Positions 81 through 33,628 of a stretch of DNA of 64,000 bases are shown here, one piece after another. The DNA comes from Myxococcales bacterium (GTDB lineage Bacteria > Myxococcota_A > Bradymonadia > REDH01). The stretch spans positions 18,035 to 82,034 of the forward strand of contig JACKDJ010000014.1 in assembly GCA_020633625.1 (NCBI GenBank), written 5' to 3'. The notes under the pieces are model-generated. The model made no database searches, had not been told where the DNA came from, and worked only from the letters and a program-made list of their open reading frames with translations. Within the stretch, counting starts at the first letter, position 1; the number at the start of each line of letters is the position of its first letter. A program made the translations under genes and the position numbers.

Positions 81-133
81 TGATCCTCATTTCCTGATCC
101 AGGTGCTACGGGAGGCCGACCCCGGAGCACACG

Positions 134-406
134 ATGAAGAAGAAGAAGTTCAGCGACGAGAAGATCCTGGCTCTCCTGGCCGAAGTCGAGGCAGGAGCGA
201 CGATCGTCGAGACGTGCCGGAAGCACGGCATCTCAGAGCCGACATTCCACCGCTGGAAGGCCGAGTTCGCCGGTCTGGACAAGGCCTCGCTGGCCCGGAA
301 GCGAGAGCTCGAGGAGGAGAACGCACGGCTGAAGAAGCTGCTCGCGGAGACTCTCCTGGCCAACGAGCTGCTCAAGGAGGCGAACGCAATGCTGGGAAAA
401 CTGTGA
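134..406 (+). CDS. IS3-family transposase OrfA (helix-turn-helix / leucine-zipper part)
   Basis: 90-aa product MKKKKFSDEKILALLAEVEAGATIVETCRKHGISEPTFHRWKAEF..., typical of IS3/IS911 OrfA. It ends just after the slippery heptamer G GGA AAA at 394-400. Confidence 0.85.
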   Translation: MKKKKFSDEKILALLAEVEAGATIVETCRKHGISEPTFHRWKAEFAGLDKASLARKRELEEENARLKKLLAETLLANELLKEANAMLGKL

Positions 407-8351: not shown

Positions 8352-8413
8352 CCGGATCGATGGGCGCTTGACGCGGCCCTCGTGGCGATGCAGCTAGTGT
8401 CGCTCCAATCCAC

Positions 8414-9346: not shown

Positions 9347-9366
9347 TCGCCGATCCCGACGCTTGT

Positions 9367-12300
9367 TCAACTCTTGTCCGAGTCGTCACCAAAGAGGTCT
9401 GGCTGACCATACACGGGGCCGCGTGGGCCGGCGGGGGTGCCCGCCCCTGCTTCCCGCTCCTCGGCGGCTCGCGCGGCGTTGAGCGCAAACAGCCGGTCGA
9501 TGATCTCGCCTTCGAAGCGCCGCTTCGCGTCCGCCTCGCCTGGGCTCGCGGGATCCTGGAAGGCCGGCGGCTCCAAGTCGCTCCAGCCGTACGCCGCCAG
9601 CACCACGCGATCCATCTGCTCGTGCAGCTCACGCAGGTGGACGATCTCGGCGTCGTCGCACGCCGGATCGCGGAGCCGGTTGTACGTCGTCGTCAGTCCA
9701 ACGTCCGTCGCCACCATGTAGCTGGCGCGCGCCGCGTACAGGGCATCGCCCGCCTGCTCGACCTCCGAGCCGGCCGCGAGCGTGTGCGGGGCAGGGAACG
9801 GGAAGTTCTCGAAGCAATCAGTGGCGGAGTATCGAAGATCAGACTTCATGGACGACGACAGCGTCCAGGACCATCTGACATGCACGCTGGACTGTAGGAC
9901 TGCGAACTCCGCGGTGCCTGAAAGCGGGAACACGAAGAGCTGTTCCGAGAATACGCGATCCGTCGACTGGAACGAGAACATGCAGTGCTTGCTGACGCGC
10001 GCTGTCACAAGACATCGTGAGAGCTTCGTGAGCGCACGGTAGAGCTCCACCCGCTTCTCACCAAACTGCCACCAGAGGCGACGATAGATGTCGCGATTGT
10101 TCCGATCGCGCTCCGGCTTCGCCAGCTCGCGCACCCGCCCGATCAGGTCCGGCCACTGCTCCGCCTCTTCGAGCGTCATCTGGCCGAAGTTGATGACGTA
10201 GCGCTCGAAGTCCTGGGTCGGCGACGAATTGACCTCCTGGCCCCCGATGTACGGGAAGATCCGCTCGGCGTTGCGTGGGTCGCGCGCGCCGAGCTCGTCG
10301 CGCTCCTCCGGCGTCAGCGTGAAGCCCATCCCCAAGACGATGCTGCCCTGGAAGCTCTTCCCCGCGTTTGCACGCAGCGCGACCGGGTCCGGCCGCTCGG
10401 GTCGTGGCGCCAGCCGGCTGTTCAGGGCGGCCACGGCGAGCCCGTTGAGCCGCAGCTCCCCGACGTGCGACCGACACTCTCCGCGGGCGAGGTGGACCGT
10501 GCTGATCGTGACGCCGGCCTCTCCGGGCCACGGCATGGAGTCGACGGCGTCGTAGAGGACCGCGCCGTCACCGACGATCCGCTGCAGTCCCGTCGCGCGC
10601 GTGTCGCCCTGACCGATCGTGTTCGTCGCGATCAGCCCCGCCGTGCCGTGCTCGCCGAGGTAGTGCGCGGCGCGAAGGAAGAAGTGCGCCGAGAGGTCCG
10701 CGTTCCCGTGGGCGCCGGGGTGCACGGCCTGCAGCCACTCGATGTAGTGTGGGCCGCCCGAGGCCGCGATGTTGTTCTTGCCACCGAACGGCGGGTTCCC
10801 AACGAAACAATCGAACCATGCGGCCTTGCCCAACCGGCCGCTCGCCAGCGGGTCCGGTCGCTCGCCGGCGAACACCTCTGGGAACTCCAGCATCCAGTGA
10901 AGCGGCGTGAGCTGCGCTCGCGCCTCGGCCTGCCACAGGTGAAGCTGGGCCGTCGGCGACTCGCGGCTGGCGAGCCAGTCGAGCACTTCCCCGCGCCGGT
11001 TCTGGAGCGCGGCCTTGCGCTCCTGGCGGCGCTCGACCGCGAAGAACGCTCCGACGACGACGTCGGCGAGCAGTCGCGCGCGCTCCATCGCGTCGTCGGC
11101 GTCGCGCAGCAGCCACACCTTACGCTGGGCGTCGACCGCGGAGCGGCTCTGGGCGAGGTCGAGAATCTCCCGGCGCAGCCGCAGCGCGCGCTCGATCGCT
11201 TCGTTGAGCTCGCGCTGGACGATCAGCTGCTGCTTTCCCCCTTCCCACGAAAGGGCCTGGATCTGGTTGATGTCGAGTCCCACCAGCGCGTCGCCATGTC
11301 GCAGCGCGTGGTCGACGAACGTGAACGGCTGGTCTGCCGCGAGCGTGACGAGCCACATCGACAGCTTGGCAAGATCGACGGCGAACCGATTCTTGTCGAC
11401 ACCATACAAGCACCGCTGCGCGACGAGCCGGCGGGCGTGCAAGACGGGGTCCCCGTGCTCGTCGCCGACCTGCTCGACGACGCCTTCGCGGGTCCACGCG
11501 GCGACGACCTCGTCTGCGAGGACGCGGCAGGTCTCGACGAGGAACGCGCCCGACCCCATCGCGGGATCGCAGATCTTGAGCGCCAGCAGCGACTCCGCCG
11601 TCCGCTCCGGGCCCATCGTCGCAAACAGCGGCTCGAGGGCACGCCGCACCATCCTCGAAGAGAGGGACCGCGGGGTGTAGTGCGAGCTCGTCCGACGCCG
11701 CTCCGTCCCGGGCTGCAGCACCAGGCGGTTCTCTTCGCGCCGCTTCGTGCCGCTGCGCCTCTCGGCCTCGAGCGCAGCGAGGCGCTCGGCGTCATCCTCG
11801 GCGGCGCCCCAAGCAGCGGCCAGCGCGGTCGCTCGCGCAGACGACAGCCCCGCCTCCTCTCGCAGCCATGCCACACGCTGAGCTGACGGCACCGACGCGA
11901 GCGCGTCGACGGTGACCCAAACGCCATAGTCCCGCAGACAGACCGCGGCGGCGTCGAGCCGCGCCACATGGTAGCCCATCAGGCGTTCATACACGCTCCC
12001 AATCTGCTCAACGTCGAGAGCCTGATAGCTCAGGCGCTGCCCATCGAGAATGAGCAGCCGACGCAGCACGCCATAGACGGTGGCGTCGTGGATGGCAGGG
12101 GTCCGAACGGTCGCACGCTCCTCGGGCAGCCGCGGCGCGGGCTCGCCGACACGGCGCCCCTCGAGGAACGGAAAGAGCTCGGGATCAAACAACATCCCGT
12201 GTCGCGGAGGCGTCCGCAGATCTCCGAACGTCATCCCGTGGTAGACGGCCCTGAAGAGGGCGAGCAGCCGCGGCCAGGCCCCGAACCGCTCGTGCATCGT

Positions 12301-13311
12301 ATCGGCGTGCGTCGCTGCATCCTCGTGCAGCTGTTCCCACAGCCCCAGGACGCCGAGGTGCGTGCCGTACAGGGGGGCATCGACCGGCATCAAGCCGCGA
12401 TCCTCGGCGTAGAGCAGAAAGACCAGGCGCAACAGCACGGTGAGCAGCGCCCGGTAGACGTGGTCGTCGTCGACCTCGAGTGCAGCGCTCAGCGCTCCGC
12501 CGTCGCCCCGCTCTTCGCACTCTTCGAAGCCGGCCAGCAGCAGCTCGATGGCCTCGAAGACCTGCCGAGCGAGCTCCGCGGTGACGTCGGCTTGCCGGCG
12601 TCGACTGTCGCGCAGGATCGCGTGGAGATCCCGATCGGGAGATGTGAAGACCGTCTGCGCAGAGAGGAGCGAGAGCAAGCCGCCGAAGATGTCTTGGCCG
12701 CCGGGTCCCGCCATGTCGCGGATGCCGAACGTGATCGCGCCCGAGGCCTCTCCGTGGGGGGCCACGACGAGACGGAGCACGTCACCGTTGAACAGCAGCC
12801 CCACCGGGACCTGAACGTGACGGAGCAGTCGCTCGAACTTCGCCGCCGGAGGGTAGTGCCACTCACCAGTGGTCGTCTCGGGGCGGTCCAGGTCGAGCCC
12901 GGAGGGGAGCTCCCACGCGAGCCACACGTACCCGCGGCCGGCGCCCGGCGACGCCGCCTCGCGCTCCAGCTCCGCGGTGTCGGGCGGCGCGACCCGGCGG
13001 AGCGCCCGCGTGGGACGCAGGTGCTGCCGCCCCTCGGGCACCCACAGCGACAGCTCGTCGGGGAGCACCCCGTCGAAGTCGAAGTCGCCCTCTTCGTAGC
13101 CGAGAATCTCGAGCAGCGGGGTCAGGCTTGGGAGCCGCTGGGCGCCGCTTTGGCCGTCGATGAGCGCAGACCGCAGCGCAGCGTGCTCCACGCGAGTCGC
13201 GGGACGGGCACACTGCGCGTCGACCAGGGCCGGGACCGAGACGACGAGCCCCTGAATCGGCTGGACCATGCCGAGCCAGGTTTCGTGAAACCGCCGGTCG
13301 ATGTGACTCAC
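9367..13311 (-). CDS. drmMI: DISARM DrmMI, large N6-adenine DNA methyltransferase
   Basis: Catalytic motif IV NPPF in ...FDCFVGNPPFGGKNNI..., AdoMet-binding region LYGVDKNRFAVDLAKLSMWLV, 1314 aa. Start overlaps the drmD stop by 4 bp. Confidence 0.8.
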   Translation of the reverse strand: MSHIDRRFHETWLGMVQPIQGLVVSVPALVDAQCARPATRVEHAALRSALIDGQSGAQRLPSLTPLLEILGYEEGDFDFDGVLPDELSLWVPEGRQHLRPTRALRRVAPPDTAELEREAASPGAGRGYVWLAWELPSGLDLDRPETTTGEWHYPPAAKFERLLRHVQVPVGLLFNGDVLRLVVAPHGEASGAITFGIRDMAGPGGQDIFGGLLSLLSAQTVFTSPDRDLHAILRDSRRRQADVTAELARQVFEAIELLLAGFEECEERGDGGALSAALEVDDDHVYRALLTVLLRLVFLLYAEDRGLMPVDAPLYGTHLGVLGLWEQLHEDAATHADTMHERFGAWPRLLALFRAVYHGMTFGDLRTPPRHGMLFDPELFPFLEGRRVGEPAPRLPEERATVRTPAIHDATVYGVLRRLLILDGQRLSYQALDVEQIGSVYERLMGYHVARLDAAAVCLRDYGVWVTVDALASVPSAQRVAWLREEAGLSSARATALAAAWGAAEDDAERLAALEAERRSGTKRREENRLVLQPGTERRRTSSHYTPRSLSSRMVRRALEPLFATMGPERTAESLLALKICDPAMGSGAFLVETCRVLADEVVAAWTREGVVEQVGDEHGDPVLHARRLVAQRCLYGVDKNRFAVDLAKLSMWLVTLAADQPFTFVDHALRHGDALVGLDINQIQALSWEGGKQQLIVQRELNEAIERALRLRREILDLAQSRSAVDAQRKVWLLRDADDAMERARLLADVVVGAFFAVERRQERKAALQNRRGEVLDWLASRESPTAQLHLWQAEARAQLTPLHWMLEFPEVFAGERPDPLASGRLGKAAWFDCFVGNPPFGGKNNIAASGGPHYIEWLQAVHPGAHGNADLSAHFFLRAAHYLGEHGTAGLIATNTIGQGDTRATGLQRIVGDGAVLYDAVDSMPWPGEAGVTISTVHLARGECRSHVGELRLNGLAVAALNSRLAPRPERPDPVALRANAGKSFQGSIVLGMGFTLTPEERDELGARDPRNAERIFPYIGGQEVNSSPTQDFERYVINFGQMTLEEAEQWPDLIGRVRELAKPERDRNNRDIYRRLWWQFGEKRVELYRALTKLSRCLVTARVSKHCMFSFQSTDRVFSEQLFVFPLSGTAEFAVLQSSVHVRWSWTLSSSMKSDLRYSATDCFENFPFPAPHTLAAGSEVEQAGDALYAARASYMVATDVGLTTTYNRLRDPACDDAEIVHLRELHEQMDRVVLAAYGWSDLEPPAFQDPASPGEADAKRRFEGEIIDRLFALNAARAAEEREAGAGTPAGPRGPVYGQPDLFGDDSDKS

Positions 13312-16300
13312 GACCGTGTCTCCGGCCAGAGGTAGAGGAGGCCGATCGGCTCGAGCCGGCGGGCTTGGACGTCGTAGAGGGCCCGCAGCTGGCTCGGCTC
13401 CTCGGAGCGCTCGCGCTCGATGTCACGCGACCGCTTCTCCATGTGGTCACGGTCGAGCTCGAGCTGTCGCCGCTGGATGCGGTCCTCGGGCGCAACGCTA
13501 TCGAAGTCGATCGTCAGCTGCGCGACCAGCCCGCGGAGGCGAGTCTGCTGTCTGTCGAGGAGTGCACGCAGATCGCTTGCCTCCTGCTCGCCCCGCGCGC
13601 GCAGCTTTACGACGGCGTCACGCGCGTTCGCCTCGGCCTCGTCGCGCACATGCGGCCAGAGGGTCGCGAAGTCCGCGCCGGCGACGGCCGCGACACGCGC
13701 ACACACGCTCGCGGGGGTCACGAGCCGATCGAACCGGTCGCGGTACGCGTCGTCGAACAGCGAGATCAGCTCGGCTTCGTGCGCAGGCGACACGGGCTCG
13801 AGGTGTGGCGGCTCGCGCGACTCGAGCCAGGGCGCGGCCACGCACACGAGCTCCTCGTGCAGACGCGAAGAGCCGCGGCCAAACAGCGACAGTCGCCCAA
13901 AAGCGAGTACGTGCGGCGTCGACAGTCGGGGTACGCGGGCGACCGCTACCCTGTGGAGCTCATCACCGGCCCAGCCGTGCGCCAGAAAGCGCGACAGTAC
14001 CCGTTGCGCGAGCGGGTGTGCGAGGTGAAGCTGGACCACATCCGCCCGCAGCCGACCGGCCGGCTCGAAGCTGACGGGCAGTGGCGCTCGCTTTCGGTGC
14101 TCCCACAGAGGCTCATCGCGACCACGAGGGGGGCGCGCAGAGTCGAGGGTCGCCTGCCAACCGTTTGGAAACTGCGGGAGCTGCCAGAGTCCGTCGCCGA
14201 GCGAGGCGAGGGGCGAGGTCCCGAGGGGCCTCTGGAGTGCGACGTTCATCCCGGTCTCGATCACCTTGTGAAAGAGGCCGGCGTCGTGGCCCAGCTGGCG
14301 TCGCGATCGGTCGAGCGTTCGGGCGGCGAGGTCGAGGTCTCGGCCCAGCGCAGCGGCGGCCCGCTGCGTCTCTAGCTCGGACGAGACGGCGCCGCGCCGC
14401 GCGCGCGCGCGAGCGTCTATCTCTTCGAGCCGGCCGATGGACGACTCGCGGATCCCGTCTGCGAGCTCGGCGGCGATGTCGTCCATGATCACTGCGCCGA
14501 GCGAGCCGAGCTCGCGCTGGATCACGTCGACCTTTCGGACGAGCGCGGCGAGCACGCGGTCCTCGGCACGCTGCGGGTAGACGAAGTAGTGACAGAACAC
14601 CTCTGCCGCGGGCTGAAGCGCCCGGTCGATGCGGCCGTTCCGCTGCTCCATCCGAGCGGGATTCCAGGGGATGTCGAAGTGGAACAGGGTCGCGCAGGCG
14701 CCCTGCAGGTTCACGCCCTCGCGCGCGGCGTCCGTACAGAGGAGGATTCGCAGGGGGCTCTCGGATGGCGCCGAATTGAACGCGCGCTGGACCTTGTCGC
14801 GGGCGTCGTCCGACATGCCGCCGTGAAAGACGCCGATGCGCTGGTCGGCGTCGGCGGTGTGAGCGACGGCACCCGAGAGCTGGGTTCGAAGGTAGCGGAG
14901 CGTGTCGCCGTACTCGGTGAACACGAGCAGCCGAGTCTCCGACCACGTCGCGTCTGCTCCACAACCGGCGTCGAGCGCGACCGCGGGGCACTGGTGCCGG
15001 CGGATCCAGTCGAACAGGAGCCGTAGCTTCGCGTCAGGCCTGCTCCGCAGGCGGTCGGCGGCGGCCACGAGCTCTTTGAGCAGCTCTGCGGGCACCGTCG
15101 TCGGGTCCAGCCCCATGCTCGCGCTCGCCGCTTCGTCGGCCTCCTCACGGTCGAGCGCGTCGTCGGACTGCCCGTACGCTTCGAGATCGAGATCGAGCGA
15201 GGCTTGGGCGAGGCCCGAGCTGGACTGTGCCGGTCGGTCCTCGAGCGACTCCCGACGCAGGGCTCTCGCGTGCGCCGCGAGCGTTCGAGCGAAGGCCTCG
15301 ACGGACGACAGGAGGCGCTTCTGAAGGTTCACGAAGACCAGGCGCGCGCGGCCGCTGGTTGGCTCGACAGCCTGGCTGTAGGTGCGGAGGAGGGCCGCGA
15401 GCGTGAGCTCGTCGCCCTCGACTCCGCCGAGCTCGACCTCCGTTGCGGAGTCGCCGTCGATAGTGGTCGCGGCTCGCCAGCCGGTGGGATCGTGGCGCAG
15501 CCGATGCTCGACGATCCGACGCTGCGGGAACTCCTCGCCCAGCTTGCGCAGGTCTTCCTTGAGCCGCCGAACCATCACAGGCTCGAGCTGGCGGGCATCG
15601 TCGACTGGCACACCGCGAGTGAAGCGCTGCGGATCCATGATCTCGAGCAGAGCGGAGAAGCTGTTCGAGTGTCCGTTGTGCGGTGTCGCGGAGAGAAAGA
15701 GCCGGTTCTCGAACTTGGGTGCGACCTCGCGCACGACGCCTGTGAGCTGGCTGTCGACTGCGTACTCCGACGCGGTGCTCGGCGCCGCGTGGTGCGCCTC
15801 GTCGAGGATCAGCAGGCTCCGGGCCCGGCGTTCGCCGAGCTGTTGGAGCAGGGGGTCGCGGTGCTCGGGCCGCCTCAGCATCGGGTAAGAGACGATGAAC
15901 CGGGAGTGCGTGGACCACGGGTTCACCGCGAAGCCGCGCTCCTTTCGCCGCTCCGAGACGAACGCGCGGGTGTAGATCTCGAAGCGCTGTCCGAACCGTC
16001 GCTCGAGCTCGTCGCGCCACTGGAGGGTGACCGACGCTGGGCAGACCACCAGCGTGAAGTCGACGCGCTGGCGGAGCGTGAGCTCCTGGAGCACGAGCCC
16101 CGCCTCGATCGTCTTCCCCAGCCCCACATCGTCGGCAATGAAGAGATTGGCTCGCGGCAGGCGCAGCGCCTTGGCGAGCGGGGTGAGCTGGTGGCTGAGC
16201 AGCTTGATCCCGGCACGGAACGGCGCCTGGAACAGGCCGGCGTCGGTAGCCGTGACCGCGTTCCACCGAAGCGCGTAGTACCAAGCCGCGAAGAGGCGAG

Positions 16301-16847
16301 GGTCATCGGTCCCTCTCACGGCGCCGATCCCGTCGGCGTGCTGACGAAGGACCCGCGCGCCAAGCTCGAGCTCCCAGAGGACCTCGAGGGGCCGGCCCTG
16401 GTCGTCATCGTCGAGGCACGTCAGCGAGACCCGGGTCATGTCGTCGCCTGCGGCGCCGGCCTCCACGTCCACGACGAGGTACTGTCGTTGTCGGCACACG
16501 ACGAGGTCGCCGGGTTGCGGCAGCCCGTTGTCGGGGACGGCGGGCGCTGCCCGAAGGCGGGCGAGGTCGGCGTCCAAGTCGGCCGCCGCGAGGATCCGCT
16601 CGACGAGGTCGACGAGGGCACGCCCGCTGTCGGGCAGGCCATGCGCGCGGCACGCGGCGCGGAGCTCGTCGCGCGTGAGCTCGTGCAAGACCTCGTACAT
16701 CTGCCCGCGCACGTCGTGCGCGAACCGCCGCGCCTGCTCGGCCTTCGCGAGGGAGCTGGGCACGACGGCGCCGAACTCGCGCGCCACCTCTGCGATGCGA
16801 GCTTGAGTCAGCGTCTCGACGACGGTCTGTACGGTAGGCGCGAGCAT
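13308..16847 (-). CDS. drmD: DISARM DrmD, SNF2-family helicase
   Basis: SNF2 N-terminal motifs LLSHQLTPL...LFIADDVGLGKTIEAGLVLQEL...LVVCPASVTLQWRDEL, DExH box LLILDEAHHA, helicase-C domain. Start taken at MLAPTVQTV... (ATG 16847). The further upstream ORF-track extension is Arg/Pro-rich and implausible. Confidence 0.85.
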   Translation of the reverse strand: MLAPTVQTVVETLTQARIAEVAREFGAVVPSSLAKAEQARRFAHDVRGQMYEVLHELTRDELRAACRAHGLPDSGRALVDLVERILAAADLDADLARLRAAPAVPDNGLPQPGDLVVCRQRQYLVVDVEAGAAGDDMTRVSLTCLDDDDQGRPLEVLWELELGARVLRQHADGIGAVRGTDDPRLFAAWYYALRWNAVTATDAGLFQAPFRAGIKLLSHQLTPLAKALRLPRANLFIADDVGLGKTIEAGLVLQELTLRQRVDFTLVVCPASVTLQWRDELERRFGQRFEIYTRAFVSERRKERGFAVNPWSTHSRFIVSYPMLRRPEHRDPLLQQLGERRARSLLILDEAHHAAPSTASEYAVDSQLTGVVREVAPKFENRLFLSATPHNGHSNSFSALLEIMDPQRFTRGVPVDDARQLEPVMVRRLKEDLRKLGEEFPQRRIVEHRLRHDPTGWRAATTIDGDSATEVELGGVEGDELTLAALLRTYSQAVEPTSGRARLVFVNLQKRLLSSVEAFARTLAAHARALRRESLEDRPAQSSSGLAQASLDLDLEAYGQSDDALDREEADEAASASMGLDPTTVPAELLKELVAAADRLRSRPDAKLRLLFDWIRRHQCPAVALDAGCGADATWSETRLLVFTEYGDTLRYLRTQLSGAVAHTADADQRIGVFHGGMSDDARDKVQRAFNSAPSESPLRILLCTDAAREGVNLQGACATLFHFDIPWNPARMEQRNGRIDRALQPAAEVFCHYFVYPQRAEDRVLAALVRKVDVIQRELGSLGAVIMDDIAAELADGIRESSIGRLEEIDARARARRGAVSSELETQRAAAALGRDLDLAARTLDRSRRQLGHDAGLFHKVIETGMNVALQRPLGTSPLASLGDGLWQLPQFPNGWQATLDSARPPRGRDEPLWEHRKRAPLPVSFEPAGRLRADVVQLHLAHPLAQRVLSRFLAHGWAGDELHRVAVARVPRLSTPHVLAFGRLSLFGRGSSRLHEELVCVAAPWLESREPPHLEPVSPAHEAELISLFDDAYRDRFDRLVTPASVCARVAAVAGADFATLWPHVRDEAEANARDAVVKLRARGEQEASDLRALLDRQQTRLRGLVAQLTIDFDSVAPEDRIQRRQLELDRDHMEKRSRDIERERSEEPSQLRALYDVQARRLEPIGLLYLWPETRS

Positions 16848-17239
16848 GGGCGGCCCCGACGTAGGCGAGTGCGTGGTTATCTCGCGGTGGCGGGCTGAAC
16901 TCAAGGGGTGGGCGCTCGCGGGGGGCGTGGGTGAGCCGCCCCAACCCAGGCAAATTGCTCCTCGCGAGCGCGCCCACGCGTGCGCGTGCACGCGTGCGCG
17001 AGCATAGTAGCCCACCGGCGACTGCCGGCGGTCCGCAGCGCCCGCGGTGCGTGCGCGGCGAGGGCGACGGCTCAAGTCAGCGCCAACACCGGGCCCGCGC
17101 CACGCACGCAAGGGCGCCCGAGAGGTGCGGCCGCGGGCGTCGCGGGGGCCTGGTCCGGGCCGGCACACCGCCACGGATCGTCGCGAAAAAGCGACACACT
17201 CGATCAAGAGTCACTTGCGCCGGTCTCCGCGGTCGGGTA

Positions 17240-17400
17240 GGGTCCCCGTACCGCTCGTACGGCCGTAGTCGCGTGCGCGCGACCGAACTTAAGAGTTATA
17301 CGGCTTTCGGTTTATTTTTTAGCCATCGTGTATTCGGTTTCCGCCTTCGCGGAATTCGCATGACAGTTTAGCGAAAGCGCGTTCGGGTCTTCATCCCGTT
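17240..17400 (-). promoter_or_regulatory. AT-rich (~50% GC) putative promoter region for the DISARM operon
   Basis: Sharp GC drop (…cttaagagttatacggctttcggtttattttttagccatcgtgtattcgg…) in a ~70% GC genome, in the large non-coding gap 16848-18139 between divergent drmD and the DUF262 gene. No promoter motifs were verified. Confidence 0.3.
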
Positions 17401-17458
17401 GCGCCTAACGTACTCTCGTCTTGTCGAATCGCCGACCGCATGTTCGCCGCATTCGAGC

Positions 17459-17925
17459 GCGCGCTTTGCAGAATCTGCGGACGCGCGCTTTGCAGAATTG
17501 CTAGCCCGCAGCTTGCGAATCCGCTGAGCGCAGCTTTGCAGAGCTGCGATGCGAATCTTGCAGAATCTCTAGTTCGCGTTTCCCGAATCCGCTGAGCGCA
17601 GCTTTGCAGAGCCGCTGACGCGCACTTTGCGGAATCTCTAGTTCGCGTTTTACGAATCCGCTGAGCGTAGCTTTGCAGAGCTGCTGATGCGCACTTTGCG
17701 GAATCTCTAGCCCGCGTTTCGCGAATCCGCTGAGCGCAGCTTTGCAGAGCTGCTGACGCGCACTTTGCGGAATCTCTAGCCCGCGTTTTGCGAACCCGCT
17801 GAACGCAGCTTGGCAGAGCTGCCGATGCGTACTTTGCGGAATCTCTAGCCCGCGTTTTACGAATCCGCTGAGCGCAGCTTGGTAGAGCCGCCGATGGGCG
17901 TTCCGCACGCTCGCGAATCCGCGCA
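17459..17925. repeat. Degenerate tandem array of about 7 copies of a 69-bp unit, non-coding
   Basis: Unit (gcg)cactttgcggaatctctagcccgcgttttgcgaatccgctgagcgcagctttgcagagctgctgac recurs at 17551, 17621, 17690, 17759 and 17828, with more degenerate copies from ~17459. Each unit contains a ~34-bp sub-repeat (…cgcactttgcggaatc… / …cgcagctttgcagagc…). There are no unique spacers, so this is not CRISPR. Overlapping ORF calls (17391..17987, 17501..17926) are low-complexity artefacts. Confidence 0.8.
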
Positions 17926-18139
17926 AAGTTTTTGGTTCGCGTCGCCTGCTCGTTGGTCGCGGTCAACTCGCGTTTGTCATCGTACACGCGGACGGGTCTT
18001 CCACAAGCTCACCGCGCCGCACCGTGGCGCACAGCGTAAGCACTCAGACAAACACGGAGGACTCCGATGCACCCGGACTAGCACATTCTGCCAGAACCTT
18101 CTTTGGCGCCCAACACACACTCCCACCAACGAGTTTTCG

Positions 18140-19174
18140 ATGAAGACTTCTAGTGCAAGCTTCTCCGTCGCCGCTGTCCTCGACTTCATCAACAACAAGA
18201 CCCTCGACCGTGCCCCGGAGTTCCAGCGGGGCGAGGTCTGGCGCACGGCCCAAAAGGCTGCCTTCGTCGACTCGCTCCTGCGCGGCTACCCCGTCCCCGG
18301 CCTCATCTTCGCTGATGACCCGAGTGAGAACAGCGACAGCGAGTGGGTCGTGGTCGACGGGCGGCAGCGCCTGCGGGCGCTGCACGACTACGTCCTCGGC
18401 GCGTTTGCGCTTCCCGAGGCGACACAGCTTCGGGCGCCCCAGTCAGTTCGGACGGCGTCGGCCGATTGGCTCGGCCGTCGCTACGACCAGTTGGCGGCCG
18501 CGGACCAAGAGCGACTGCTCGGCTACGAGCTCGCCGTCACGGTGATGTCCGGTGCGAGCTGGGACGAGGTCCGAGACGCGTTCATCCGCCACCAGGGCGG
18601 CACTCCGCTCGCGCCACAGCAGGTCCGAGACGCCTTCCCCGGCGACGTCGCGGAGCTTGTTCGGCGCGTCGGGGGCTGGCGCATGGCGACTCCGGAGTAC
18701 GACATGGTGCGGCTGTGTCAGAGCGGGGGCGCCGGCAGCTCAGACGAGACGTCAGGGGCAGACCCATACGTCAGGAACCGAGAGTTCTGCGCTCGCCTCC
18801 TCGCCGCGTTCTTCTCCCGGCGGACTCAGCCGGACGTCTTCCCGAGGCTCAACGCGACGGCGATCGACAACCTCTATCACACTCACGTCGTGATCGAGGA
18901 CGCGGATGCCGACGCCTTCTGCTCGACGCTAGCGAAGGCCCGCGAGGCGGTCCTGCGTTGCTACGACCCCCGGAGGCAGATCGTTCGGGTGAACGTCGCC
19001 TGCACGTTCCTCTTCGCCGTCGACCACCCCGACACGCCGGTCGAGCGCATGGCCGCGCGGCTCGCCGAGATTGACGCTCGCCGGCTATCCACCAAGGGGC
19101 TGAGCCTCCAAAACGCGGCTCGACTCGAGAACTACTATCGCAACTTCGCGCGCCAGATGCGTGCACGTCGGTAG
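18140..19174 (+). CDS. DUF262 (ParB-like / GmrSD N-terminal type) domain protein with an uncharacterised C-terminal half
   Basis: N-terminal region FINNKTLDRAPEFQRGEVWRTAQKAAFVDSLLRGYPVPGLIF...WVVVDGRQRLRAL carries the DUF262 QR...DGQQR signature. Start taken at MKTSS (18140); upstream ORF-track residues overlap the repeat array. Local GC is lower than the surroundings. Confidence 0.6.
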   Translation: MKTSSASFSVAAVLDFINNKTLDRAPEFQRGEVWRTAQKAAFVDSLLRGYPVPGLIFADDPSENSDSEWVVVDGRQRLRALHDYVLGAFALPEATQLRAPQSVRTASADWLGRRYDQLAAADQERLLGYELAVTVMSGASWDEVRDAFIRHQGGTPLAPQQVRDAFPGDVAELVRRVGGWRMATPEYDMVRLCQSGGAGSSDETSGADPYVRNREFCARLLAAFFSRRTQPDVFPRLNATAIDNLYHTHVVIEDADADAFCSTLAKAREAVLRCYDPRRQIVRVNVACTFLFAVDHPDTPVERMAARLAEIDARRLSTKGLSLQNAARLENYYRNFARQMRARR

Positions 19175-19243
19175 CCGCAAGCCTCGACACCCCGGGAGGC
19201 CGCGGACGCGGCCTCGAACCTTCCACACAGCGAGGAGAGAGAA

Positions 19244-19666
19244 GTGAACAACAACACGATTGTACGCGCGTCCAAGCTTGACCCCGGCAGTGTGCGGTTG
19301 CTTAACCCGGGTGTGCTCAGGGGGCAGTCCCGTGATGGGAACGAGGCAACCTGGCCCTCCGATCCTCACTTCGCGTTGGTGCTGCTCGTGAGCGGTACGG
19401 TACCTGAGCGAGATGTGTGCTTGCTCTGGCTCACGAGCAAACCTGGCCCGGGCCGTCGACAGGTCCCGGAGTCTGTGAAGGACGGACACGTCGGGACGTG
19501 GAACTCGAAGCCGACCTACATCTACGCCGTGGCGCAACGGTTCTGGGTGGACGAGGCGACGCTTCGCGCGGCGGACAAGACCATCGGCGACCTTAGGGTT
19601 GAGAACGGCTGGTTGTCGCAGCTACAGGCCGACATCGCGTACGAGGAGTATCGGGTCTCGGCGTAG
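19244..19666 (+). CDS. Hypothetical 140-aa protein (no recognisable domain), GTG start with a strong GAGGAGAGAGAA Shine-Dalgarno
   Basis: Open frame with good RBS spacing, 70 bp downstream of the DUF262 gene. About 60% GC. Followed immediately by a perfect 15-bp stem hairpin. Confidence 0.45.
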   Translation: MNNNTIVRASKLDPGSVRLLNPGVLRGQSRDGNEATWPSDPHFALVLLVSGTVPERDVCLLWLTSKPGPGRRQVPESVKDGHVGTWNSKPTYIYAVAQRFWVDEATLRAADKTIGDLRVENGWLSQLQADIAYEEYRVSA

Positions 19667-19669
19667 AGC

Positions 19670-19725
19670 CTCGGCACGGCCGCGATTCGAGGTGACCAGC
19701 TGGCTGCGACCGCGGCCGTGCCGAG
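19670..19725 (+). terminator. Perfect 15-bp inverted repeat (ctcggcacggccgcg … cgcggccgtgccgag), 26-nt loop, 4 nt after the stop of the 140-aa ORF
   Basis: Read directly from the sequence. GC-rich stem with no T-tract. Could be an intrinsic terminator, an RNA-stability hairpin or a protein-binding palindrome. Confidence 0.35.
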
Positions 19726-19884
19726 CCCACAGCCTCGTCCCGCGTCGGAATCGCCCCAGCGTGACCTGTCCACTGTTCGCGCTCGGTTCCGGCGCGGCGC
19801 GCGAGTCCGGAGTGCGACGCTGCAGTGTCACAGCCGGACCGACCCGTGGTATGCCTGTCGGCGACGCCTCTACCCCGCCGAACC

Positions 19885-20907
19885 ATGACCATCACCGCCA
19901 TCACGCTAGAGAAGTTCACGGCGTTCGAGTCGCTGGAGTTCGAGCCCTCGACAGGGGTCAACGTTCTGATCGGTGCGAACGGTACCGGGAAGACGCATCT
20001 GATGAAGGTCGCGTACGCCGCGTGCGACATCACCCGGACGCGCGAAGGATTCGGCGAGAAGCTGGTTGGCTCGTTCCTCCCTTCGGGTGGCGCCCTCGGG
20101 CGCTTGGTGCGGCGTCGCGGAACGAGCTCGGCCGCGAGAGTCGTCGTGCGCAGAGGCGACCTCGCCCTCAGGGCGGAGTTCTCGAGTCACGCCAAGGACC
20201 CAAGTCACGCGAATGTGAAAGTGACGGCGCCGCGCTGGAGCGAGTCACCGGTCGAAAGCGTCTTCGTTCCCGTCAAGGAGATGCTTGCGAACGCCCCCGG
20301 CTTCCGATCGCTCTACGCGCGGCGCGAGATTCACTTCGAGTCCGTCTACGCCGACATCATCGATCGCGCGTACCTACCCCTGCTCCGGGGTCCACGGGAC
20401 GACACCCACCGCGGCCTCCTGTCCACACTGCAGGGCGCGATGGACGGCAAGGTGGTGGTCAAGAACGAGGAGTTCTTCCTGAAGAACGCTCAGGGCGAGC
20501 TCGAGTTCACGCTGCTCGCGGAGGGCCTTCGCAAGCTGGGGCTGCTCTGGCTCCTGATCCAGAACGGGACGCTCGCCGGCGGCTCGGTGCTCTTCTGGGA
20601 TGAGCCGGAGACGAACCTCAACCCGCAGCTCTTCAGTGTCGTCGTGGAGCTGCTCCTTGGGCTCCAGCGATTGGGCGTTCAGGTCTTCGTAACCACACAC
20701 GACTACGGAATGCTCAAGGAGTTCGAGCTCGCCGCGCGCCCAGGTGACCACATCCGCTACCACGCCTGTTTCCGGCCAGAAGGCACCGCGGCCGTCGAGA
20801 TCGAGACATCCGACACTCCGTCCAACCTCGCGAACAGCCCTATCGCCGCCGCGATGACCTCCCTCTATGACCGCGAAGTGCGTCGGTCGCTCGGGAGACG
20901 CGCATGA
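19885..20907 (+). CDS. Minimal ABC-type / AAA_21-like ATPase (~340 aa)
   Basis: Walker A LIGANGTGKTHLMK, ABC-signature-like LAEGLRKLGLLWLL, Walker B/D-loop VLFWDEPETNLNP, H-loop FVTTHD. Start at MTITAITLEKF. Its stop overlaps the next gene's ATG (ATGA). Confidence 0.65.
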   Translation: MTITAITLEKFTAFESLEFEPSTGVNVLIGANGTGKTHLMKVAYAACDITRTREGFGEKLVGSFLPSGGALGRLVRRRGTSSAARVVVRRGDLALRAEFSSHAKDPSHANVKVTAPRWSESPVESVFVPVKEMLANAPGFRSLYARREIHFESVYADIIDRAYLPLLRGPRDDTHRGLLSTLQGAMDGKVVVKNEEFFLKNAQGELEFTLLAEGLRKLGLLWLLIQNGTLAGGSVLFWDEPETNLNPQLFSVVVELLLGLQRLGVQVFVTTHDYGMLKEFELAARPGDHIRYHACFRPEGTAAVEIETSDTPSNLANSPIAAAMTSLYDREVRRSLGRRA

Positions 20908-21413
20908 CGGTCATCGTCGAAGCCGAGCTCGAGTTCACATTCGACCCGAGTTGGGCGACCGAGCATCTCGACTCGCCAGGGCGGGTATGGCCCAAGGGAA
21001 TCTCGCCAGTCGACTTCGTCGTCGACCGAGGCGACGACCTTCTCTTGATCGAGGTGAAGGACCCCTCGCACTCGCGCGCAACGCCCGCCGAGCGCACCCG
21101 ATTCATCCGAGAGATGACGTCGAGAGAGCTCACTCACGAGCGGCTCGCGCCCAAGGCACGGACCAGCTGGTCTTACCTCTACCTCATGGATCGGACCGAG
21201 AAGCCGCTTGTGTTCGTCTTCCTTGTCGGGACCGACGCACTGACACTGGAGCCTGTGCTCCTGCAATCACTGAACGACCGGCTCCGGGCGCGACTTGCGC
21301 AAGAGACCGAGCACCCTTGGGCACGCCCGTATGTCGTCTCGTCTGTCGTCCTCCCCGCCCTCGACGCCGGTCGGTACATTCCTGGGCTCAGCGTGACACG
21401 AAGACGCGGGTAG
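20904..21413 (+). CDS. Small (169-aa) predicted PD-(D/E)xK-fold nuclease-like protein, translationally coupled to the ATPase
   Basis: N-terminal acidic helix (EAELEF), then ...PVDFVVDRGDDLLLIEVKD..., i.e. D-(x11)-E-V-K spacing typical of the restriction-endonuclease-like fold. 4-bp ATGA overlap with the ATPase gene. The motif assignment was made by eye. Confidence 0.5.
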   Translation: MTVIVEAELEFTFDPSWATEHLDSPGRVWPKGISPVDFVVDRGDDLLLIEVKDPSHSRATPAERTRFIREMTSRELTHERLAPKARTSWSYLYLMDRTEKPLVFVFLVGTDALTLEPVLLQSLNDRLRARLAQETEHPWARPYVVSSVVLPALDAGRYIPGLSVTRRRG

Positions 21414-21428
21414 CCACTGCCCCCCACC

Positions 21429-22184
21429 TCACACCACCGCGCCACCCACCGCCCGCGGATCGAACGTCTCCAGCTCGCGCGTCAGCAGCTCGCCGGTCGC
21501 TTCGGGCTCCAACAGCCCGCGCTTCTGGAACGCTGGGATGACCTTGGACTCGACCGTCTCTCGCATCGCTTGCCAGTGCTCGCGTCGGTCGATCAGCCCA
21601 AAGGCGAGGGCGCTCGGCTCGTAACGGGGCTCTTCGTCGCGGAGCTTGGCTCGCAGGTAGATGCGGAGCCACCAGCAGAGGCGGGGGCGGACCCAGGCTC
21701 GCACGGGCTCGAGTCCATACAGCTCGCTCAGCGCGTCGAGGACGTCGAACGCGAAGACGCGGTGCGTGGACTCGTCGCGCAGGATCACCTCGCAGACGTC
21801 GCGCGCCATCGGGTCTGTCGCGTTCTCTAGGCGCATACGAAACACCGTCAGCGCGACCGACTCTTCGCACGCGAGCTCGCCGGCCGCCGTGATCAGCCGC
21901 AGGTGCATCGGGGCTTCGGGGTCGTCGGCGTGGATCAGCTGGCGCGGGACGAGCGACACGGGCGTCGGCGCTCCGCCGGCGTGCAGGTACAGCTCGTGGC
22001 AGATTGTCGCGTGCCGGACCTCGTCGCTCACCACACGGGTAGCGCGGACCAAGAGGTCTGGGCTCAGGCCGACCACACACATCCAGTGCGTCATCTCCGC
22101 GACCAAGCTCGCCGCGGTGTACTCCGTGCGCGACTGTCGGAGCCACGCCCGCTGAACCACATCCACGGTGTCTCCCGCGTTCAA
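21429..22184 (-). CDS. Ferritin-like / di-iron-carboxylate-type domain protein (251 aa)
   Basis: Paired ExxH motifs (DEVRHATICHE, ...EESVALTVF..., DESTHRVFAFD) and predicted helical character. Start overlaps the stop of the upstream lipoprotein gene by 4 bp. Confidence 0.45.
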   Translation of the reverse strand: MNAGDTVDVVQRAWLRQSRTEYTAASLVAEMTHWMCVVGLSPDLLVRATRVVSDEVRHATICHELYLHAGGAPTPVSLVPRQLIHADDPEAPMHLRLITAAGELACEESVALTVFRMRLENATDPMARDVCEVILRDESTHRVFAFDVLDALSELYGLEPVRAWVRPRLCWWLRIYLRAKLRDEEPRYEPSALAFGLIDRREHWQAMRETVESKVIPAFQKRGLLEPEATGELLTRELETFDPRAVGGAVV

Positions 22185-22843
22185 GTCGGTTGGCGGTCGA
22201 CCTCGAACGGACCGCGGCGCCCACGGTAGGAGCGAAGCCCCTGGCTAGGGCCCTCGGGCGCACACCACGCGAACTGGCTCCAGTCGAGTCCCGGCCCCAA
22301 CATCGCCTCGCCGCTGCCCTCGCCCGAGCCCTCGCCGCCCTCGCCCGAGCCCTCGCCGCTGCCCTCGCCCGAGCCCTCGCCGCCCTCGCCCGAGCCCTCG
22401 CCGCTACCCTCGCCCGAGCCCTCGCCGCTACCCTCGCCCGAGCCCTCGCCCGAGCCCTCGCCGCTGCCCTCTGGAACATCCGGCAGCGCATCGCCGTCTA
22501 CCGAGTCGGGCTCGTCGCTATACCATCCGGAGTTGTCCGAAAGTTCGGGCTCTTCGACGTCGGGATCCTCGGTGACCTCGGCATCGGCATCAACGTCCGG
22601 ATCGTCGCTGTACCATCCGGAGTTGTCGCAGCACTGGGGGAGGTCGCCGTCGGGTTCGTCCGAGACCTCGACGTCGAGGTCGTCGGTGTACCACCCAGAG
22701 TTGTCCGAGAAGCCGGACTCGTCCCTGTAGCCCGTGTCGGGTTCGGTGTCTGCGACGCGATCGTTGCAGCTCGCGACGAGCGCGACGGGCAGCGTCAACG
22801 CGACGACAAATCGCGGACCTCTGAAGTTCGATGCCATAGCCAC
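22181..22843 (-). CDS. Low-complexity secreted lipoprotein with DNSGWYSD(D/E)PD repeats and a long (GEGS)n linker
   Basis: Lipobox MASNFRGPRFVVALTLPVALVASCND, three DNSGWY repeats and a 70-aa GEGSGEGS tract (24/30-nt periodic DNA at ~22240-22500). Co-oriented and overlapping with the ferritin-like gene. Confidence 0.55.
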   Translation of the reverse strand: MAMASNFRGPRFVVALTLPVALVASCNDRVADTEPDTGYRDESGFSDNSGWYTDDLDVEVSDEPDGDLPQCCDNSGWYSDDPDVDADAEVTEDPDVEEPELSDNSGWYSDEPDSVDGDALPDVPEGSGEGSGEGSGEGSGEGSGEGSGEGSGEGGEGSGEGSGEGSGEGGEGSGEGSGEAMLGPGLDWSQFAWCAPEGPSQGLRSYRGRRGPFEVDRQPT

Positions 22844-23016
22844 AAGGTACCGGGGCGAGCGATCATGTCAACAGCCGTCCGAGCCTCGGCTCTTCTCCGG
22901 GACGCCGAGCGCGATGACACGGAGCGCGACGACGGAACGCAGCCGCTACTGCTGAGCCGCTCGCGACGCGCGGCACGCCCCGAGGGGCGTGCCGCGCACC
23001 GACCACACAGCGCTCG

Positions 23017-26000
23017 CTACCCGCGCCGGCGACGGCGCACGGCCACCAGGGCGAGAGCGGTCAGCAACAGGGGCAGGCCGCTCGGCGTGCTCCCCGGCGC
23101 CGACGCGCACCCGTTGCGCTTCGGACCCGAGCCACCGTCGCTGCCGCCGTCGAGCGGGGTCACGCCGCCGTCGTCGCCGCCGGTGTCGAAGCCCGAGATG
23201 CCGTCGTCGCCGGCATCGCCGCCCGCGTCGGAGCCCGCGTCGGAGCCGCCGTCAGCCCCGGCGTCGCTGCCGGCGTCGGAGCCCGTGTCACCGCCGGCGT
23301 CGCCGCCCGCGTCGCCAGCATCGCCGCCCGCGTCGGAGCCCGTGTCACCGCCGACATCGCCGCCTGCATCGCCGCCGACGTCGTCGCCGGCGTCTGCACC
23401 CACATCGTCACCGGCGTCTCCGCCCGCGTCGCCACCGACGTCGTCGCCGACCTCTGTGACGAGGACCTCGTAGACGGCCGTGGGGGCGCCCTCGGGCGAG
23501 GTCGCGACGTTTGCTGCGACCGAGAGGTCCGTCGCCTCGATGTAGTAGTAGGCGAAGCCCGCGACGAGGTCGTCGCCCGGGATCGTCAGGCGGTACTCGT
23601 CGGCGCCGGTGTGATCCATCACGTCGTCGAGCCACACGCCCGAGTCGGCGATCTGAACATACAGGCGCACCTCATCGATGCCGCTGGCGTCGGTGACCGT
23701 CGCGATGACGTCGATCGACGTGCCCGCCGTCACCTCGGTGACCGGCGTGTGCGTGATCACCGGCGGCACGAGATCGGGGCCCGTGATCGGGTCGACGACG
23801 AGGATCTCGGGGCGCAGCTCGCCGCCGGCAGGCTCGAGGGTCACGTTGCCGATCGTGTCGCTCGCCTCGACGAAGTACGCCAGCTCGCCGGCCACGACGG
23901 CGCTGCCGGGCAGCGTCGCCGAGTAGCGGCCGCCTACCAATGTCATCGGCGTCTCGGTCCACGTCTCGTCTGTCGCGCCCGACGTGCTCAGGGTCACCGT
24001 GCCGACTCCCGATGGGTCGGTGACGCCGGCCGTGAACGTGATCGGGGCGCCGGCCGTGTAGGGGCCTACCGGCACATCGAGCTCGACCGTCGGCCCCGTC
24101 GTGTCGGGGTCGACCACGACGACCGCGTACGGGACGGCCGGGGCCGTCGCCGGCGCGCGCGCCGTGTTCGAAGGCGACGCGCCGTCGACCGCCTGCAGGT
24201 AGTACTGCACACCCGGCGCCGCCACCGCGCGCGCGGGGATGGTCGCCGACCAGGTATCACCGGCCGGCGTCATCGCGAGGGTCGTGTACGAGGTCTCGCC
24301 GACCACGCGGTAGTAGACCGTCGCCGAGGCGATCCCCGACGCGTCGGTGACCGTCGCGTCGAGGGTCAGCGGGCGGCCGGAGACGAGGGTCGCGGTCGTC
24401 GGCGTGTGGACGATCGTCGGCGCCGTCGTGTCGGGCGTCGTGACCACGAACATCGACGGAGTGGCCGGCGCGCTCGCCGGCGCCACGGCCGAGTTTGGCG
24501 TCGCCGCCCGGTCGGTAGCCGACACGTAGTAGTCGACGCCGGGCGCCACGACGACCGTGCCCGGAAGCGTCGCCGACCAAACATCGCCCGCTGCCGTCAT
24601 CGCGACCGACAGCCACGCCGACGAGCCGGTGGCGCGGAAGTAGAGCGTCGCGGACGCGACGCCCGACGAGTCCGTGATGCGCGCGAGGACCGTCGTCGGC
24701 GTACCGGCGACCACGGGGCTCGCGACCGGCGTGAGCGAGATCGTCGGCGGCGCGAGGTCGGTCGTCACCGCCGTGAACGTGTGGAACGTGGCCGGCGCGC
24801 CAGCCGGGTTGACCGCGGTGTTTGGCGCGGGCGCCGAGTCTGTGGCCGAGATGTAGTAGTTCACGCCGGGCGCCGCGACCGACGAGCCCGGGATCGAGGC
24901 CGTGTACGTCTCGCCCGACCGAGCCATCGCGGTGCTGAGCCACGTCGCGTCGCCAGAGCGACGGAAGTAGAGCGTCACGTTCGCGATGCCCGTCGCGTCT
25001 GTCACGGTCGCCGAGACGGCCACCGCGGCACCGACGGGCTGGCCGTCGGCGATCGGCGTGTGTGTGATCGTCGGGGCCGTCGTGTCGGGTACGAACACCT
25101 CGAACGAGTTGAACGACGCCGGCGCGTCGCTCGGGTCCACGGCGGTGTTCGACGGGGACGCCCCGTCGGTCGCCGACACGTAGTAGTCGACGCCCGGCAC
25201 CAGGATCACGGTGCCCGGAAGGGTCCCCGACCATGTGTCACCAGACGCCGACATCGCGACGGACAGCCAAGACGAGGTACCCGAGGCGCGGAAGTACAGC
25301 GTCGCGGACGCCACACCCGACGAGTCGGTGACGCGCGCAGACACCGTCGTCGCCGTGCCCGCCGCGATCGGGCCGCTGACGAGCGTCGTCGTGATCGACG
25401 GCGCCGCCACGTCGGCCGTGACGACCGTGAACGTGTGGAACGAAGTCGGCGCTCCGGCCGGGCTCGTCGCGATGTTTGCTGCCGGCGCCGTGTCGGTCGC
25501 CGAGATGTAGTAGCTGACGCCCGGCGCCGCGACCGACCCGCTCGGGATCGATGCCGAGTAGGCGCCACCGCTCCCGCTCATCGCCGTGCTGAGCCACGTC
25601 GCGTCGGTGGAGCGCTTGAAGTACAGCGTCACCGGGCCGACGCCCGTCGCGTCGGTGACCGTGGCGCTGACGGTCACCGCGGCTCCCGCCGGCTGACCGT
25701 TCGCGATCGGCGTGTGGACGATCGTCGGCGCCGTCGTGTCGGGAACGAACACGTCGAACGTATGGAACGACGTCGGTGCACCGGCGGGGTCGAGCGCCGT
25801 GTTCGACGGCGACGCCGCGTCGGTCGCGGACAGGTAGTAGTCGACGCCCGGCGCGACCACGGCCAGTGCCGGGATGCTGCCGCTGTATGCGCCGGCGAGC
25901 CCGCCGGTCATCGCGGCGGAGAGCCACGTCGTCGTGCCGCGGACCCGGAAGTACAGCGTGACGGCGCCGACGCCGCTCGCGTCGACGACGACCGCCGAGA

Positions 26001-33429: not shown

Positions 33430-33628
33430 GCAGAGACTCGACACGTAGGGGGATGGAGCACCCGGCGTCTTAGCCCGCTCTCGGGCCCGAATCAACGCGG
33501 GATTTGGGGGCCCGACGGCGGCTCCCGAGCGGCGACGCGCGCGTTGACGCCGAGCCCTGCGTCGCCCTAAGCCTACCGACCGACGCCGAGACAGTCGGCG
33601 CACTCGCTGCCCCGAGCCCCCGCGCCCC

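Follow-up and report, generated by a model that had tools for sequence, protein, structure and literature searches.

The subject of this analysis is a DUF262 gene (positions 18140 to 19174, plus strand; ATG start, 344 residues) in a 64,000-nucleotide stretch of contig JACKDJ010000014.1 from a Myxococcales bacterium, here called the window, together with the 140-residue open reading frame (ORF) behind it, ORF140 (19244 to 19666, plus strand; GTG start). The DUF262 gene is probably a nuclease-less derivative of a type IV-like enzyme in which a DUF262 domain and an HNH nuclease are joined in one chain; its 3' end would have been replaced, and an in-frame orphan ORF left in place. An earlier note on this DNA had reported the same two ORFs and a QR…DGRQR motif; the ORFs are present, as are the motifs EFQRGEVW and VDGRQR. 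It overlooked that the DUF262 protein belongs to a DUF262+HNH family, within which it stands out by having no nuclease, and that ORF140 lies in frame behind a single stop codon.

The DUF262 protein begins MKTSSASF and falls into three parts, all encoded on the plus strand. Approximately the first 180 residues (18140 to 18679) form a ParB-like DUF262 NTPase domain, recognized from alignments and from the motifs EFQRGEVW, VDGRQR, and RDAFIRHQGGTPLAPQQVRDAFPG. Within it, the Pfam model GmrSD_N/DUF262 covers residues 14 to 87 (5.8e-16), and the best PADLOC match, NsnA (3.4e-27), spans residues 5 to 175 only. The DUF262 motifs QR..W, DGxQR, and FIR.QGG are conserved, except for Q75R and Y28F. Residues ~181 to 317 (18680 to 19090) make up a helical middle domain that has a homologous counterpart in DUF262+HNH proteins, is all-helical in the AlphaFold model, and is probably a DNA-binding domain of the ParBDB type (for the concept, see PMC12065111). 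The last 27 residues and the TAG stop at 19172 to 19174 (19091 to 19174 together) cannot be aligned with the family, whose members run on into a linker and the HNH domain.

Structure prediction gives a ParB-like alpha/beta domain followed by helices. The overall predicted local distance difference test (pLDDT) value is 72, with values of ~80 to 95 across most of residues ~1 to 180. When the model is compared with solved structures by Foldseek, the best match is BrxU (7p9k), although the match is weak (TM 0.27, E 6e-4); ParB, Noc, and KorB follow as remote fold matches only (E 2e-3 to 2e-1). BrxU is also the best sequence match among solved structures. All of the sequence relatives are DUF262 or DUF262+HNH proteins, Pfam gives GmrSD_N alone, and the protein does not group with the partition proteins of the helix-turn-helix type, such as the housekeeping ParB and Noc. 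The earlier assignment to a defence-type DUF262 (GmrSD_N/NsnA-like) rather than to a housekeeping ParB is therefore upheld.

A first search with the DUF262 protein found remote relatives only, which aligned to its N-terminal half. A profile search retrieves 263 relatives at E <= 1e-10, and among the matches listed (120 of the 263 relatives), the majority combine PF03235 with PF01844 in 435 to 470 residues. A scan of species-representative genomes yielded 80 loci with DUF262 relatives, which show two architectures: proteins of ~410 to 455 residues with a C-terminal HNH, and proteins of ~336 to 365 residues without one. By length the window protein would fit the HNH-less class, but its kinship lies with the HNH-bearing class. 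It aligns best, over 256 residues, with Palauibacter and Longimicrobiales proteins of 447 to 455 residues, which share with it the signature RD.FIR.QGGTPL.PQ..RDA.PG. A hidden Markov model (HMM) of the family (445 positions), made without the window protein, matches it with 242 bits (E ~6e-76), and residues 1 to 313 correspond to profile positions 1 to 312. Much weaker is the match to an HMM of the HNH-less, RelA_SpoT-paired class described below (110 bits, residues 2 to 182 only). The family has 53 positions with at least 90% conservation up to the middle domain, and the window protein keeps the family residue at 41 of them. Sequence comparison thus places it within the widespread single-chain DUF262+HNH family, as an HNH-less outlier. 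No experimental study of this family was found in the literature; some sources annotate its members as HNH endonucleases or, in some cases, as McrA-like.

The alignment with the family HMM ends at about residue 313 to 317 (profile position ~312 to 316 of 445), and the end of the middle domain is missing. Nothing in the protein corresponds to the last ~130 profile positions, where the whole HNH (CxxC...HH...N...H) lies, and the 14 conserved linker and HNH positions are all missing. Pfam reports no HNH or DUF1524 in the protein (for DUF1524, none at E <= 0.1), and the HEC-05/BrxU models match residues 6 to 59 only. The earlier note had described the C-terminal region as lacking a recognizable HNH or DUF1524, which is correct; the region itself is not unrecognizable, being homologous to the DUF262+HNH middle domain as far as residue ~313 to 317. 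The note had also called the N-terminal domain an NTP-binding and nicking module. Of this, the NTPase and sensor part stands and nicking does not, as DUF262 is an NTPase/sensor module while cutting is the work of a His-Me domain (PMC10952713, PMC12065111, PMC4619093), with cutting or nicking attributed to DUF1524 (PMC10952713, PMC12065111). Because sensing lies in DUF262 and cutting in the His-Me domain, the window protein would be a sensor without a blade.

The missing nuclease is not encoded nearby. An HMM of the linker and HNH, used with all HMMER filters off, finds no HNH remnant in the six frames of 19100 to 19900, nor is there an HNH of this family anywhere in the window; the best E-values in these searches are 0.5 to 1. 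The same values rule out ORF140 as a hidden or frameshifted HNH. Compared with a single-chain relative such as P0034 of Candidatus Palauibacter (annotated as an HNH endonuclease family protein), which has the same DUF262 and helical middle domains, the window protein thus lacks an HNH both in its own chain and in the next ORF, and unrelated sequence stands in its place. In each of three other short, HNH-less family members examined on longer contigs, the HNH is found in the next ORF, in another frame. For this reason, the slot behind the DUF262 part appears normally to hold a nuclease, and only here something else.

In these three loci (L171, 2898 to 4213; L172, 4001 to 5342; L173, 4001 to 5703), the DUF262 ORF and the HNH ORF are split and lie 27 to 105 nt apart, and the second ORFs match PF01844 at 7e-11 to 2e-7. 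They may be pseudogenes produced by a frameshift, results of sequencing error, or genuine two-subunit forms. L172 adjoins a set of RE_HindVP, methylase, and Vsr genes and a HamA gene. Like the window, these pairs and split gmrS/gmrD have a small ORF on the same strand close behind the DUF262 ORF; there, however, the second ORF is a nuclease, whereas ORF140 carries none. GmrS and GmrD of E. coli CT596 were reportedly first described as separate polypeptides.

The DUF262 ORF and ORF140 share a reading frame and are separated by one TAG and 23 sense codons. This joining stretch (19175 to 19243, plus strand; 69 nt) has a codon-usage score of ~0 and holds a Shine-Dalgarno-like GGAG (19234 to 19237), placed 6 nt ahead of the GTG of ORF140. 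The TAG recurs unchanged in a second metagenome-assembled genome and in three further assemblies, of which two represent slightly divergent strains. Its presence in four assemblies from different runs rules out a sequencing or assembly error.

ORF140 resembles a gene in composition. Its codon-position GC (0.62/0.47/0.80) is gene-like, and its codon-usage log-odds score is +0.26 bit per codon, compared with -0.11 to -1.04 for the five other frames and 0.23 for HEC-02B, the nuclease gene farther downstream. The signal sits in the second half of the ORF (0.46, against 0.06 in the first half). An ORF of 140 codons is itself unremarkable in DNA of 63 to 70% GC; 12 kb here hold 58 ORFs of at least 80 residues. 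Among 5.8 billion clustered proteins, ORF140 matches only itself, and an exhaustive phmmer search of 1.84 billion representatives likewise returns itself as the only full-length match. It has no match in Pfam, PADLOC, NCBIfam, or PHROGs, nor in phage or plasmid collections, and it is absent from the 80 DUF262-relative loci and from 80 loci with relatives of the downstream ATPase HEC-02A. Its single-sequence AlphaFold model is poor (pLDDT 51), and Foldseek against the PDB gives nothing below E = 1. By these searches ORF140 is an orphan, and since no library searched holds a homologue, it has no synteny either.

Some candidate relatives of ORF140 were discarded. The other phmmer matches (E 2e-7 to 1e-3) involve one stretch of 25 to 35 residues (YIYAVAQRFWVDEATLRAADKTIGD) that is like one FG-GAP_2 repeat, and their scores accumulate over many repeats of the target proteins; a beta-propeller fragment is an unproven similarity, as the Pfam FG-GAP_2 model is silent even at E = 10. 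One longer match (P0030) is a 17-residue tandem-repeat artefact. A 144-residue ORF behind the closest relative of the DUF262 gene (L008) has no similarity to ORF140. A decayed RelA_SpoT partner was also rejected, since tblastn of two RelA_SpoT proteins against the window gave nothing in this region and BLASTP against ORF140 was empty.

The preferred explanation can be stated as a series of steps. In the intact enzymes, the ParB-like NTPase and the helical DNA-binding domain would sense DNA, probably modified DNA, and this would switch on the C-terminal His-Me nuclease, both by analogy with GmrSD, BrxU, and SspE. In the window, the coding sequence from the last part of the middle domain through the linker and HNH would have been replaced near residue 313 to 317 by unrelated DNA, which would be open in the same frame and broken by one TAG, giving ORF140. 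The 344-residue product would be unable to cut DNA by itself; because its motifs are kept, it probably still binds NTP and DNA. ORF140 would have arisen from the rearrangement as a by-product peculiar to this strain or lineage, or would at most be a young gene, rather than a conserved partner, and the HEC-02 pair and the DISARM operon that flank this block would be independent systems in the same defence island. We infer that restriction activity was lost and that the HNH was replaced rather than never present. A DUF262 match in a defence island, taken alone, is thus not equivalent to a working restriction enzyme or to a new system, a point that guards against over-calling.

Several observations weigh against this explanation. 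The DUF262 ORF is intact, its catalytic motifs are kept, and its GC content at third codon positions (GC3) is a host-like 0.85, unlike what is seen in an old pseudogene. ORF140 may be expressed and functional, given its coding-like codon usage, the favourable position of the GGAG, and a stop that strain variants retain as TAG or TAA. HNH-less DUF262 proteins with a separate effector do exist, as in Menshen NsnA and in the pairs of DUF262 and RelA_SpoT genes, so that a nuclease-less sensor is a viable design. In addition, the closest relatives of the window protein share only 30 to 36% identity with it, too little to date or orient the HNH loss.

These points lead to explanations in which ORF140 has a function. 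The earlier note had proposed a two-gene defence or toxin-antitoxin-like unit, an idea that finds no support: ORF140 has neither homologues nor synteny in the libraries searched, an outcome that the note itself had named as refuting it. In a more specific form, ORF140 would be a new effector or adaptor that has taken the place of the HNH as a separate polypeptide, making the two genes a very young two-component defence or abortive-infection unit. The arrangement fits: ORF140 lies on the same strand and in the same frame, 69 nt behind the DUF262 gene, with the GGAG ahead of it, a hairpin right behind its stop, and a codon usage that scores as coding; it has no strain variants, compared with 8 in the 218-nt spacer that follows; and the effector positions of DUF262 systems are highly polymorphic, as in Menshen NsnC (PMC12065111). 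Yet the protein has no homologue in billions of proteins, either as a gene or as a fused domain, fits no known family, and gives a poor model and an empty fold search; its first half and the stretch joining it to the DUF262 gene lack a coding signal; and the variant-free region also spans the DUF262 gene, so that it may reflect a recently shared haplotype rather than selection. This reading is considered rather unlikely. That ORF140 is a newly arisen or captured effector or adaptor replacing the HNH, which in a pair or a read-through fusion with the DUF262 protein would form a new defence or abortive-infection unit and would have a fold with no known relative, is judged unlikely as well, by a shade more. 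Were the swap real, the locus would show effector swapping at its very beginning in a type IV-like restriction family. A functional ORF140 would imply that sequence without detectable ancestry can move into the effector position of DUF262 sensors, and the locus would offer a natural sensor-only DUF262 protein in which to study ParB-like NTPase recognition. A related proposal, that the TAG is read through or recoded to give a single DUF262 protein of 507 residues with a new C-terminal domain, draws on the single in-frame stop, which is reproducible in four assemblies, and on the 23 sense codons after it, whose peptide resembles a linker, with many P, A, S, T, and E residues. It is highly improbable: no recoding signal has been identified, Rfam is empty over 16500 to 22500, the joining stretch has no coding signal, and the same frame with 23 stop-free GC-rich codons is expected by chance with a probability of ~0.2 (a rough estimate).

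Other explanations assign the DUF262 protein to its neighbours. It could be the NsnA-like sensor of a three-part, Menshen-like system, with HEC-02A as the transducer, HEC-02B as the effector, and ORF140 as an accessory. The four ORFs lie on one strand within 3.3 kb, the scan found no T-tract terminator between them, NsnA is the best PADLOC match of the DUF262 protein, HEC-02A has a weak NsnB match (3.2e-10), and the order fits the Menshen logic of a DUF262 sensor, an ABC ATPase, and a nuclease (PMC12065111). In Menshen, however, NsnB with its DUF3696 tail lies directly downstream, and NsnC with an inPIN N-terminal domain and an effector is required (PMC12065111). Here, the next gene is ORF140 rather than an NsnB-type ATPase, and no inPIN-effector protein of the NsnC type follows. 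HEC-02A is not an NsnB, since its match is partial (residues 231 to 285 only) and Pfam reports no DUF3696 tail; HEC-02B, with 169 residues, has no room for an inPIN-type N-terminal domain beside its nuclease; and HEC-02 defends as a two-gene system. The DUF262 protein does resemble NsnA in combining DUF262 with a predicted helical C-terminal domain and no nuclease, but the NsnA match is confined to the DUF262 part, and the HNH-fused family is a nearer relative of the protein than any sensor-only class. Between the two units lies a 218-nt spacer containing a 15-bp hairpin, and strain variation changes abruptly there. HEC-02A or HEC-02B is found within 6 kb in none of the 80 DUF262-relative loci, and neither a DUF262 gene nor ORF140 occurs in any of the 80 HEC-02A-relative loci (50 to 69% identity), 39 of which extend upstream by 1.5 kb or more. 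By this comparison, the DUF262 gene has no conserved linkage with HEC-02 or with ORF140; a Menshen-like system is quite unlikely, and the suggestion of the earlier note that the gene works with the downstream pair finds no comparative support. Still less likely is a role as an accessory of DISARM, in the way that BrxU complements BREX, by which the protein might recruit or flag modified phage DNA without cutting it. The DUF262 gene is adjacent to and divergent from the DrmD gene of a complete DISARM operon, and BrxU, a DUF262 enzyme beside the methylation-based BREX, is a precedent (PMC8565348). BrxU, though, is a complete stand-alone nuclease and the window protein has none; a 930-bp spacer with a 69-bp tandem repeat lies between the genes; and the DUF262 family members examined are not regularly found beside DISARM. 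More generally, GmrSD, BrxU, and SspE resemble the window protein in having a ParB-like DUF262 NTPase, marked by QR and DGxQR motifs, with a helical domain after it, but the window protein lacks DUF1524 or any other His-Me nuclease and has 344 residues, compared with ~580 for BrxU.

The comparison of DUF262 loci also brought to light an arrangement of its own. In 11 of the 80 genome loci and on 2 metagenome contigs, an HNH-less DUF262 protein (~336 to 365 residues) is directly followed by a gene of ~340 residues with a RelA_SpoT domain (Pfam 3.7e-21), and the two ORFs often abut or overlap. Examples are L017 (5986 to 8072), L001 (6001 to 8091), and L003 (6001 to 8225); further pairs are found in L016, L020, L026, L027, L031, L039, L046, L061, L062, and L083. 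The lineages include Terriglobia, Actinomycetes, Latescibacterota, Sericytochromatia, Thermomicrobiales, and Chthoniobacterales. In a full-text search of the literature on alarmones, toxSAS, or CapRel, none of the papers listed mentions DUF262. These pairs may represent an undescribed defence system consisting of a sensor and a toxSAS-like partner, and the conserved pairing of an HNH-less DUF262 with a RelA/SpoT-like protein across many phyla may hold the more general interest.

Downstream of ORF140, the ATPase-nuclease pair seen earlier can now be identified as HEC-02. HEC-02A (19885 to 20907, plus strand) is an ABC-type ATPase (PADLOC HEC-02A 1.3e-116; Pfam AAA_21 3.8e-21), and HEC-02B (20904 to 21413, plus strand) is a NERD-like PD-(D/E)xK nuclease (PADLOC HEC-02B 6.4e-43) that matches HEC-02B models only, save for one marginal match to PDC-S01 (E 0.021). 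The two genes overlap by 4 nt, and HEC-02B is directly downstream of HEC-02A in 42 of the 80 related loci. HEC-02 is known as a two-gene system that pairs an ABC ATPase with a NERD nuclease; E. coli is defended only when both genes are present (bioRxiv 10.1101/2024.01.29.577857). In the window it is thus a self-contained neighbour on the same strand, and like the DUF262 gene it is defence-island cargo. The two closest HEC-02 pairs (68 to 69% identity) sit inside BREX, between PglX and BrxHI. The order in L088 (2047 to 8782) is PglX, HEC-02A, HEC-02B, and BrxHI; in L087 (301 to 6521), BrxC and PglX lie upstream of HEC-02, and PglX is split into two ORFs.

The spacer between ORF140 and HEC-02A (19667 to 19884) begins with the hairpin mentioned above, a perfect 15-bp inverted repeat (19670 to 19684 and 19711 to 19725, plus strand) with a 26-nt loop, which starts 4 nt past the ORF140 stop. 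Against shuffled versions of the same GC-rich stretch, its folding energy is unexceptional (z = -1.26). It lacks a T tract and is not reported by the terminator scan, and its arm is not a repeated element within the window. It is possibly a transcript end or a module boundary. In the divergent strains, all differences begin at the ORF140 stop, which changes from TAG to TAA, and continue in the spacer and in HEC-02A. The 1.5 kb to the left of the spacer has none, and there are none within ORF140 or the DUF262 gene. This pattern could mark a module or recombination boundary between the DUF262/ORF140 block and HEC-02, and it fits either selection or a recently shared haplotype.

On the other side of the DUF262 gene lies a class 1 DISARM operon, which PADLOC finds complete; it is divergent from the DUF262 gene, as the earlier note had it. 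All of its genes are on the minus strand: DrmD, the first gene (13308 to 17207; 9.6e-292), DrmMI (9367 to 13311), DrmA (4875 to 8351), DrmB (3023 to 5140), and DrmC (~2238 to 3030). Between DrmMI and DrmA is a 340-codon ORF (8348 to 9370, minus strand) with 4-nt overlaps on both sides, no match in Pfam, PADLOC, NCBIfam, or PHROGs, and a negative codon-usage score (-0.21); this is either no gene at all or a gene of foreign composition embedded in the operon. At the outer edge of the operon, an integrase/transposase of the rve family (103 to 1236, plus strand; Pfam rve_3 5e-21, rve 1e-19) is consistent with a mobile defence island.

Base composition gives little sign that the DUF262 gene is foreign. 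Its GC content is 67.6%, compared with 63.1% for ORF140, 64.7% for HEC-02A, 63.7% for HEC-02B, and 70.0% for the window, so that the ~60% previously given for both genes was overstated. Because its GC3 equals that of DrmD, the composition of the DUF262 gene shows no sign of recent acquisition, and the case once made from GC for its horizontal transfer is weak.

The 930-bp spacer between drmD and the DUF262 gene contains a tandem repeat array (17459 to 17888) with a 69-bp unit in 6.2 copies (87% match). The unit has an internal sub-period of ~23 bp with TTTGC(A/G)GA. An ORF of 198 codons runs across the array on the minus strand; as its codon-position GC is flat and its coding score negative, it is an artefact of the repeat. 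The Rfam scan of 16500 to 22500 matched nothing, in the array or elsewhere. Scans for sigma-70 promoters, and for T-tract terminators between the plus-strand genes, found none. Beyond HEC-02, three ORFs lie on the minus strand (21429 to 33717). The first, of 251 residues, has a weak match to AurF-like di-iron oxygenases (E 0.006, below the Pfam cutoff); the second, of 220 residues, contains (GSGE)n repeats; and the third, of 3566 residues, is a long run of similar segments of ~90 to 100 residues with a GC3 of 0.92.

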